Origin: a virus
Lineage: Duplodnaviria; Heunggongvirae; Uroviricota; Caudoviricetes
Reading direction: 5' to 3' (one strand)
Length of the DNA stretch: 41,292 nt
IMG/VR virus record: IMGVR_UViG_2718217862_000001
The notes beneath the pieces were generated by a model. That model saw only the letters and a list, made by a program, of their open reading frames with translations, searched no databases and was not told where the DNA came from. Shown in pieces: positions 31,352 to 32,050 of the stretch; the stretch's first letter is position 1; every line of letters begins with the position of its first letter. A program made the translations under genes and the position numbers.

Positions 31352-31609
31352 TTAGTTGTTCATAAAAGTGCACAGCTTTAACCAGTTCTTCTGATGTAAC
31401 CGGGACTGGCGGGGCAGTGAATAAGGCCTGAATTTCATAGTTCGGCCTGTCGTTACAATCCTCTTTTTTCGGTACATATTTCCAGTCACCAGACCACTAC
31501 TTCTCCTGAAAGTCCGTAACGCCTTTTTTTTCACGTAGCGATATCGCCATGCCACTGTTTTTGCTTGCCCCGCCGTTTCATGCCCTTCCTGATAATTAAC
31601 CTCGCTCAT
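31352..31609 (-). CDS. Questionable basic ORF containing an A8 run (A_AAA_AAG); possibly pseudogene
   Basis: Start ATG overlaps stop of upstream acidic ORF (ATGA); downstream translation is low-complexity and basic. Confidence 0.25.
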   Translation of the reverse strand: MSEVNYQEGHETAGQAKTVAWRYRYVKKKALRTFRRSSGLVTGNMYRKKRIVTTGRTMKFRPYSLPRQSRLHQKNWLKLCTFMNN

Positions 31610-31782
31610 TCATCGCCCCACTCATCACAATATGCTTCGACCGGAGTTTTTCCTGCTTCATAATCATCACGCCATGCTTCAGCATCAGCAGCACTGCCAC
31701 CACGTAACTCTGCATAGTCCATTAACAGTTCATGCCATTCTTCAAAACTGACGTTGTATTTAGTTGAACCAAAATCAGCCAT
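31606..31782 (-). CDS. Small strongly acidic protein (58 aa)
   Basis: RBS GAGGAAG 6 nt before ATG; 16 Asp/Glu vs 4 Lys/Arg; start overlaps stop of upstream ORF. Confidence 0.4.
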   Translation of the reverse strand: MADFGSTKYNVSFEEWHELLMDYAELRGGSAADAEAWRDDYEAGKTPVEAYCDEWGDE

Positions 31783-31957
31783 TTTGTTCTTCCTCTTCGT
31801 CTTTTATTTCGTGATATGAGTAATTGCAGTAGTTAAAGAAAATATCTTTTGCTTCGTCATGTATTTCATCAGGCGTCGCATCATCATCCACTTCGAATTC
31901 ATCCTCGAAATCTCCACCGGCTATTCCCGTTTCAATAATTATTTTAAACTTTCGCAT
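31775..31957 (-). CDS. Small strongly acidic protein (60 aa)
   Basis: 20 Asp/Glu vs 5 Lys/Arg; AGGAGG separated from ATG by a hairpin. Confidence 0.45.
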   Translation of the reverse strand: MRKFKIIIETGIAGGDFEDEFEVDDDATPDEIHDEAKDIFFNYCNYSYHEIKDEEEEQNG

Positions 31958-32050
31958 TTAACTACCGCCCTTTCGGGCGGCCTCCTGATGTTCTGAGGGT
32001 GCAGAAATCCCTCCGGTTAAGGATTAAATTTTTAACAGAGCTAAATTTAA

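Follow-up and report, generated by a model that had tools for sequence, protein, structure and literature searches.

Split ribosome-binding sites, in which a hairpin between a Shine-Dalgarno (SD) sequence and its start codon brings the two into register, have been established experimentally for genes 38 and 25 of phage T4 (Nivinskas et al. 1999; Malys & Nivinskas 2009; reviewed in PMC3014915), where the hairpin shortens the SD-AUG distance from 22 to 5 nucleotides (nt) and from 27 to 11 nt, respectively (PMC3014915). Two further groups of phage genes provide points of reference for the locus considered here. DNA mimics lack a fold in common and cannot be recognized as family members from their sequences, and 'small and highly acidic' is the field's own heuristic for finding them (PMC9836394). 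The exo-xis genes of lambdoid phages are early and small and influence lysogenization (PMC8614690; PMC7093339). We describe here a locus that invites comparison with all three, situated in a 41,292-nt viral DNA (IMG/VR record IMGVR_UViG_2718217862_000001), the whole of which we refer to as the window and which, judged by its sequence, is a Qin/Rac-type lambdoid prophage. The locus comprises two overlapping minus-strand open reading frames, ORF1 (31775..31957) and ORF2 (31606..31782), and a 93-nt intergenic leader (31958..32050, minus strand) that lies between ORF1 and an upstream Zn-ribbon gene (32051-32464). ORF1 and ORF2 are genuine small proteins under purifying selection with confidently predicted folds, and the leader probably provides ORF1 with a split ribosome-binding site in which the hairpin acts as an enhancer, the SD-hairpin unit forming a portable cassette at mosaic junctions. 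The window stretch 31300-32500 is 100% identical to the corresponding region of the Escherichia phages vB_EcoS-640R1 and 813R8.

A putative split ribosome-binding site before ORF1

The elements of the leader all lie on the minus strand, and its 3' 72 nt constitute the conserved portable unit. The SD sequence AGGAGG (31981..31986) is 23 nt in linear distance from the ORF1 AUG, and between the two lies the hairpin G-CCGCCC / GAAA / GGGCGG-U (31964..31981), which has seven base pairs including a closing G.U and a GNRA tetraloop and is present in one copy in the window. The hairpin base is joined to the AUG by the 6-nt spacer AGUUAA (31958..31963), which places an in-frame UAA directly before the start codon. 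An earlier note on this DNA had described AGGAGG, a 6-bp CCGCCC-GAAA-GGGCGG stem-loop, seven nucleotides and ATG in that order, and each of these is present, with the stem-loop at 31965-31980 and TAGTTAA as the seven nucleotides; the seventh stem pair, seen in ViennaRNA folds, is a G.U pair that uses the last G of the SD. For the hairpin alone the computed energy is -14.4 kcal/mol, and when 103 nt are folded together its pairs form with probabilities of 0.89-1.0. The 71-nt leader region folds with z = -2.05. The duplex of AGGAGG with the 16S 3' end is valued at -10.3 kcal/mol, and in the folded leader AGGAG is unpaired with a probability of 0.63-0.84 and the AUG is partly unpaired (0.34-0.66). 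The anti-SD duplex available to the spacer reaches only -2.8 kcal/mol, and there is no other good SD there. The earlier note had also proposed that the SD stands at a working distance only if the hairpin folds, and the computed spacings, 23 nt unfolded and about 6-7 nt folded, bear this out.

We propose that the GAAA-tetraloop hairpin folds and loops out 16-18 nt, which would leave AGGAGG about 6-7 nt from the AUG, and that ORF2 would in turn be translated from an SD in the tail codons of ORF1, by coupling through the ATGGCTGA overlap of the two genes. A candidate for this internal SD, GAGGA (31791..31795, minus strand), can be read from the sequence 8 nt before the ORF2 AUG, within codons of the acidic tail of ORF1. 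The SD-hairpin unit as a whole would act as a portable expression cassette, reused at mosaic junctions before unrelated genes.

The resemblance to T4 genes 38 and 25 is close in several respects. In each case a strong SD is too far from its AUG (22 and 27 nt in T4, 23 nt here) and is separated from it by a stable hairpin, the folded spacing is workable (5 and 11 nt in T4, about 6-7 nt here), and the element is kept among close relatives and absent in distant ones. The leader differs from the T4 examples in belonging to a temperate lambdoid phage, in having a different and shorter stem (7 bp, with its GAAA tetraloop), in being portable, as it precedes members of three or more unrelated gene families and recurs thousands of times in prophages, and in being a computational prediction. 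What would be new is thus, plausibly, a lambdoid example of a known T4-type mechanism, together with its modularity. We found nothing in the literature on the hairpin sequence or on split SDs in lambdoid phages.

The portability is seen in genome counts, for which 5426 complete E. coli genomes were searched. The 72-nt leader occurs at 3165 places in 2376 of them, about 1000 more places than the body of ORF1, which is found at 2178 places in 1871 genomes; the ORF2 body is found at 2214 places in 1904 genomes. The unit CAGGAGG-CCGCCC-GAAA-GGGCGG-TA also precedes two diverged DUF4014 alleles and a gene for a 135-amino-acid (aa) protein without a Pfam family, and the stem-to-start distance is 6-9 nt before all three unrelated gene families (DUF7167, to which ORF1 belongs, DUF4014, and the 135-aa gene). 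In ArgO145, a Shiga toxin 2a (Stx2a)-converting phage, the leader unit comes directly after the upstream stop codon.

Within the unit the hairpin is nearly invariant among 88 loci. Four stem changes were seen among the fetched cassette copies, all of them C->T in the 5' arm with G.U pairing kept, a bias that by our own estimate would arise by chance with a probability of about 0.1. The single stem-breaking change, a G->A, occurs in a decaying locus (L146) that has a stop codon in ORF2. A scan of viral contigs for AGGAGGC-N5-GAAA-N5-GGTA yielded no covarying hairpin variants and 41 chance SD-ATGAAA matches, and was not exhaustive in that canonical hairpin copies also went unreturned. Three IMG/VR loci (L009, L025, and L042) have a recombination junction inside the hairpin, at about position 2979, with GGGGATCCCTCAGG in place of the 5' arm and AGGAGG. 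The stem of these loci is reduced to the 4 bp GCCC/GGGC, yet ORF1 and ORF2 are intact, and the loci could serve as natural 'mutants' bearing on the need for the SD and the hairpin.

A second account of the leader must be considered, in which the hairpin is an element of messenger RNA (mRNA) stability or processing, or a boundary for homologous recombination, and ORF1 is translated with the hairpin melted and its 3' arm serving as a weak SD. The element does lie exactly at mosaic junctions, with flanking sequences that vary between loci, and the three loci with a junction inside the hairpin lose AGGAGG while keeping ORF1 intact. Three further points favor this account and also weigh against a split site: melting of the hairpin would free the 3' arm GGGCGGU, sequestered in the folded form, for a duplex with the anti-SD of -8.1 kcal/mol at 6 nt from the AUG; covariation is uninformative, because the element is nearly invariant and shows no compensatory changes; and distant DUF7167 genes have ordinary SD spacing and need no hairpin, from which we conclude that the hairpin is a feature of the lambdoid module, not one of the protein family. 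Decay of the cassette in many prophage copies is a further point against a split site. However, melting a hairpin of -14.4 kcal/mol to gain an SD of -8.1 kcal/mol is unfavorable when AGGAGG, at -10.3 kcal/mol, is exposed at optimal spacing once the hairpin has folded. The stem-to-start distance is held before the three unrelated genes, the architecture has been validated experimentally in T4, and the element is not a terminator. We therefore regard a purely non-translational hairpin as rather unlikely and favor the split ribosome-binding site as the probable arrangement.

Other identities for the leader were also considered. Intrinsic terminators lack a representative here, as the hairpin is followed by AGUUAAAUG with no U-run, and there is no terminator-like site in 31300-32500. 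No promoter is called in the leader, and a scan of 31500-32200 against Rfam 15 gave only chance-level matches (E > 2). A nut/boxB-like element was rejected on reading the sequence, in which the loop is a GAAA tetraloop and not the boxB pentaloop; a boxA-like GCTCT motif is situated further upstream, outside the conserved core. An upstream ORF ending at the UAA before the AUG was likewise rejected, there being no start codon in that frame in the window. The window contains some 22 strong GC hairpins, and no other has an SD on one side and a start codon on the other; this one lacks a T-run, and the others carry T-runs and are terminator-like. More generally, perfect 6-bp GC-rich hairpins are about five times as frequent in the window as in dinucleotide shuffles (44 versus 8.7 +/- 4.2, both strands). 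On one strand or the other a T-run follows most of them, in keeping with a dense, partly bidirectional set of intrinsic terminators in the prophage.

Two further features of the leader deserve mention. A second, weaker hairpin (31995-32015, minus strand; CCGGAGGG ... CCCUC) sequesters another SD-like sequence, GGAGGG. The long leader form has this hairpin and the short ArgO145 form does not; changes in several loci break it, and from these sequences it looks less constrained. In variants related to window 31775-31990 that have AGTGAA for AGTTAA before the ATG (proteins P0003, P0009, and P0004), gene callers read through the SD and hairpin and report products of 84-93 aa, so that leader variants lacking the UAA yield spurious annotations. 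The P0003 cluster (139 member sequences) has AGG where the ORF1 ATG itself would be, and these copies are either dead or truly using an upstream start.

Two conserved acidic protein families

ORF1 encodes 60 aa with 20 acidic (D/E) and 5 basic (K/R) residues, and ORF2 encodes 58 aa with 16 acidic and 4 basic residues, in agreement with the earlier note; both have an isoelectric point (pI) of 4.05. Their net charges are -15 and -12. Per residue this amounts to -0.25 and -0.21, which ranks them first and second in acidity among all 165 ATG-initiated ORFs of at least 45 aa in the window, the next being at -0.11. Strong acidity is a conserved trait of both families, with a median net charge of -13 over 57 aa and a maximum pI of 5.3 in the family of ORF1, and a median net charge of -10 over 58 aa in that of ORF2. 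The overlap of the two genes, as previously described, reads ATGGCTGA and is kept in 87 of 87 lambdoid-type loci, in all of which (E. coli-lambdoid type) ORF1, ORF2, and a third ORF are joined by the ATGGCTGA and ATGA overlaps.

The earlier note recognized neither protein, and this now needs to be qualified: ORF1 belongs to DUF7167 and PHROG 1997 and ORF2 corresponds to part of PHROG 519, although all three families are without known function. Residues 2-53 of ORF1 match positions 1-60 of the 60 in Pfam DUF7167 (PF23768; E 7.9e-15, 55.1 bits against a gathering cutoff of 24.4), the match to PHROG 1997 has an E value of 9e-31, and a gene identical to ORF1 is labeled 'DUF7167 family protein' by the Prokaryotic Genome Annotation Pipeline (PGAP). 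The ratio of nonsynonymous to synonymous substitution rates (dN/dS) is 0.06-0.10 against diverged lambdoid alleles (dS in these comparisons, for ORF1 and ORF2 alike, is up to 0.42). AlphaFold2 predicts, with a predicted local distance difference test (pLDDT) score of 88.6, a fold in which a beta-hairpin packs against a helix of 15 residues, the acidic tail beyond it being less ordered. Profile searches find DUF7167 relatives with identities as low as about 46% in Klebsiella, Citrobacter, Yersinia, and Pseudomonas, and tblastn adds virulent Herelleviridae of Enterococcus and Guernseyvirinae of Klebsiella; with the relatives of ORF2 included, the two families extend to phages of Klebsiella, Citrobacter, Yersinia, Pseudomonas, Enterococcus, and Lactococcus. 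Our literature search found nothing on DUF7167.

Some of the distant DUF7167 loci have informative neighbors. In Guernseyvirinae (Klebsiella phage VLCpiS11a, L098 2501-4025, and L099) the DUF7167 gene overlaps the start of a gene for a 454-aa DUF2800/PD-(D/E)XK nuclease, with an Nmad5-domain gene two genes upstream and a gp2.5-like annealing protein gene two genes past the nuclease. T7 gene 5.9 and lambda gam occupy comparable positions in recombination modules. A 55-aa DUF7167 protein of phage 37P2 is mislabeled 'PD-(D/E)XK phosphodiesterase', and in Enterococcus Herelleviridae (phage PBEF129 and relatives, L100 2013-2513) the 'exonuclease' annotated just upstream of the DUF7167 homolog is a DUF3850/ASCH-domain protein according to Pfam and cannot be recognized as a nuclease. 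A general link between DUF7167 and exonucleases was accordingly rejected: it is true of the Klebsiella Guernseyvirinae, with their DUF2800/PDDEXK gene, whereas the Enterococcus 'exonuclease' is of the DUF3850/ASCH type.

ORF2 belongs to a three-helix-bundle family without a name or a Pfam model. It matches positions 76-137 of the 143 in PHROG 519 (E 4.5e-23) and not the whole profile; it thus shares a domain with that family, yet is a standalone 58-aa protein, and the domain was never found fused into a longer ORF in 96 loci. Pfam has no match for ORF2 or for 38 of 40 scanned family members. An exhaustive search with a profile hidden Markov model (HMM) gave about 75 representative clusters at 50% identity, nearly all of them standalone proteins of 50-65 aa, with conserved residues W16, L20, W37, Y41, G44, and P47. 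The AlphaFold2 model, a three-helix bundle, has a pLDDT of 88.1, and dN/dS is 0.06-0.11 against diverged lambdoid alleles. Relatives are present in 198 phage records, mostly of virulent ViI-like Ackermannviridae. The Ead_Ea22 (PF13935) HMM matches none of ORF1, ORF2, and the third ORF of the window. The idea that ORF2 is a detached C-terminal domain of Ea22 was rejected, there being no PF13935 match and no fusions, and on these profile comparisons ORF1 and ORF2 are neighbors of Ea22-like genes and not members of that family.

The residence of the pair in prophages raises the question of whether ORF1 and ORF2 are simply non-functional leftovers of a decaying cryptic prophage, with an acidity that is incidental. 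The third ORF is frameshifted in the window copy, and some ORF1 and ORF2 alleles have internal stops and are annotated as pseudogenes. However, the dN/dS values of 0.06-0.11, the conservation of both families across phyla and in virulent phages, and the confident predicted folds all speak against decay. Of 80 loci chosen on ORF1 only, about 75 have an intact ORF2 of 58 aa, and copies identical to those of the window occur in isolated, induced phages. The conservation and selection data effectively refute the explanation, and we give it almost no credence.

The earlier note had implied that the two coupled genes function as a pair, and this is weakened by their distribution, each family being found alone outside the E. 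coli lambdoid phages. No relative of ORF2 lies near the distant DUF7167 genes of Klebsiella lambdoid phages and Guernseyvirinae, of Pseudomonas, of a Bacilli metagenome-assembled genome (MAG), or of Enterococcus phages. Conversely, ORF2-family genes without DUF7167 follow Ead_Ea22 genes in Enterobacter prophages and, elsewhere, a P2 GPA-type gene; others lie beside SocA/Panacea genes and in runs of small Kuttervirus genes. An obligate ORF1-ORF2 pair was therefore rejected: we see here no obligate two-component system but two accessory genes, independent of each other, that are carried together within a single group of phages.

Possible roles of the two proteins

The annotated neighborhood runs through cI/dicC/cII, an O-like replication gene, DUF977 'LygF', the Zn-ribbon gene, ORF1 and ORF2, hok/sok, YdfU/DUF968, rusA, and Q, and by this order ORF1 and ORF2 belong to the nin-like segment of the early-right operon. 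Stx2a-converting phages such as ArgO145 instead carry the pair in the early-left ea/exo-xis region, where it overlaps an ead/Ea22-like gene. The companions of the cassette in early operons are accessory genes such as methyltransferases, toxin-antitoxin genes, and Ea22-like genes.

We tentatively suggest that each protein is independently an acidic decoy, one that would occupy a basic surface with which some host or defense protein binds nucleic acids. Each would act on its own and stoichiometrically, early in lytic growth, and the target could be the nucleic-acid-binding surface of a restriction, recombination, or other defense nuclease, or of a nucleoid protein. The outcome would be host takeover or counter-defense by electrostatic mimicry, as with T7 gp5.9, lambda Gam, phi29 p56, and T7 Ocr. 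The suggestion draws on the composition of the proteins, their early accessory context, their occurrence in virulent phages, and the nuclease arrangement in Guernseyvirinae; phage anti-RecBCD genes typically sit in just such a recombination-module position (PMC9836394). Like T7 gp5.9 and lambda Gam (which act on RecBCD), phi29 p56 and PBS2 Ugi (on uracil-DNA glycosylase, UDG), T7 Ocr and ArdA (on type I restriction-modification or bacteriophage exclusion, BREX), and T4 Arn, ORF1 and ORF2 are tiny (the range is about 50-120 aa), strongly acidic, and early, and lie among accessory or recombination genes.

The comparison does not extend to the proteins themselves. Homology and structure searches, the check that the earlier note had proposed for its suggestion of anti-defense or DNA-mimic proteins, gave confident folds for both peptides and no likeness to any characterized protein, and sequence, profile, and fold comparisons specifically found no similarity to known mimics (Ocr, ArdA, Gam, gp5.9, p56, Ugi, Arn, and anti-CRISPR (Acr) mimics); mimicry is suggested by composition and context. 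The PADLOC-DB HMMs gave no match for ORF1, ORF2, the third ORF, or the two upstream genes. Two other considerations weigh against a decoy role: being small and acidic is a weak predictor of function, and the adjacency of DUF7167 to a nuclease is confined to one lineage, with neighbors that otherwise vary. The missing likeness to known mimics does not refute the idea, because DNA mimics share no common fold. The homology results neither support nor refute an anti-defense function, which we regard as a reasonable candidate hypothesis.

The proximity to ea genes suggests an alternative, that ORF1 and ORF2 modulate the lysis-lysogeny decision as the exo-xis proteins do (Orf60a, Orf61, Orf63, Orf73, and Ea22), by acting on host transcription or regulators and not on defense. 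In addition to the position of the pair in ArgO145-type Stx2a phages, relatives of ORF2 in Enterobacter prophages lie directly after Ead_Ea22 (PF13935) genes, and a Klebsiella DUF7167 gene is preceded by a weakly Ea22-like gene. ORF1 and ORF2 share with the lambdoid exo-xis/ea proteins (Orf55, Orf60a, Orf61, Orf63, Orf73, Ea8.5, and Ea22) this niche beside ea22 in Stx phages, the size class, and early expression, and lambda Orf55 is a small beta/alpha protein that has been likened to p56 and T7 Gp2 (PMC8614690). However, there is no homology to any characterized exo-xis protein, the sequences and predicted folds differ, and Orf60a and Orf61 have been modeled as basic DNA binders whereas ORF1 and ORF2 are extremely acidic. 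Both families are also common in obligately virulent phages (Herelleviridae and Guernseyvirinae for DUF7167, Ackermannviridae for ORF2), and because virulent phages have no lysogeny decision we disfavor this explanation and think it quite improbable.

A further possibility is that the proteins are not host inhibitors but serve the phage's own replication or recombination enzymes as accessory subunits, chaperones, or regulators. They might, for instance, shield the basic surface with which a nuclease or initiator binds DNA until the time comes for it to act. The cassette of the window lies just downstream of replication genes (the O-like, DUF977, and Zn-ribbon genes), the DUF7167 gene of Guernseyvirinae is coupled to the DUF2800/PD-(D/E)XK nuclease gene and followed by that for the gp2.5-like annealing protein, and one relative of ORF2 comes directly after a P2 GPA-type replication gene. 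Against this, the neighbors differ by lineage and no single partner gene co-occurs consistently, and in E. coli the lambdoid cassette moves between the PL and PR operons independently of replication and recombination genes. A role as partner of phage enzymes thus appears unlikely, and the acidic decoy remains our preferred, if tentative, reading.

The most far-reaching proposal would be that DUF7167 and the ORF2 family are two new, independent families of nucleic-acid mimics for counter-defense or host takeover, common to temperate and virulent phages of Proteobacteria and Firmicutes, which in E. coli lambdoid phages are delivered by a plug-and-play split-SD hairpin cassette that expresses newly acquired genes at mosaic junctions. 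In this full form the proposal is speculative, and we hold it to be improbable.

The surroundings and reach of the module

The third ORF, ORF3 (31352..31609, minus strand), encodes a basic protein of 85 aa with a pI of 11.3. The ATGA overlap of its start with the ORF2 stop, noted earlier, is present; the reading frame itself, however, is not an intact gene but, aligned to the intact L007 allele, a frameshifted and internally deleted relic of a 171-aa gene. The frameshift is caused by an A8 homopolymer run (31524..31531, minus strand) where the intact allele has A6, and two internal deletions distinguish the relic from the 171-aa allele in addition. Across loci, ORF3 of one type has 40, 70, 76, 85, 104, 119, 129, or 171 aa, and an alternative Ead_Ea22 type has 211 or 239 aa, giving at least ten length values and two unrelated N-terminal types across the 80 loci. 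The 211-aa allele of Stx phages matches PF13935 (E 3.5e-39), and by this profile match the alternative 211/239-aa allele is a true Ead_Ea22 protein. The variety of lengths and types shows that decay and replacement are concentrated at this position; ORF1 and ORF2, by contrast, remain intact.

Elsewhere in the window, about 750 nt downstream of the cassette, a Hok/Gef-family toxin ORF (30528-30853, minus strand) encodes a product with a 51-aa core, MKQQKAMLIALIVICLTVIVTALVTRKDLCEVRIRTGQTEVAVFTAYEPEE, and is accompanied by a full-length match (112 bits) to the sok antisense RNA. Other RNA genes are the DicF small RNA (sRNA; 36737-36788, plus strand), two tandem copies of the sRNA STnc100 (26596-26784 and 27060-27253, minus strand), each with a GC hairpin at its end, and a tRNA-Met (CAT) downstream of Q (27604-27679, minus strand). 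The start of the window falls within an IS3-family element, where Rfam recognizes the 3' part of an ALIL frameshifting pseudoknot cut at the edge (1-72, plus strand).

Parts of the cassette are present in 2533 of the 5426 complete E. coli genomes, and we put its prevalence at about 35%. This E. coli lambdoid cassette is also present, at 92-93% identity, in PP818812.1, labeled 'Actinobacillus phage vB_Apl-pPE4', which reflects either an unusual host range of the module or an E. coli prophage or contaminant in the record.

The cassette is thus carried by about a third of complete E. coli genomes, including those with the Stx2a-converting phages of enterohemorrhagic E. coli (EHEC). Both protein families are short, easily synthesized, strongly selected, and shared with virulent phages used in therapy (Kuttervirus and Kochikohdavirus), and are therefore cheap and well-defined candidates for screens of anti-defense or host-takeover activity. 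If the split SD is real, the leader would extend to lambdoid phages a mechanism documented mainly in T-even phages, and it suggests a way in which mosaic gene exchange may keep incoming genes translatable.

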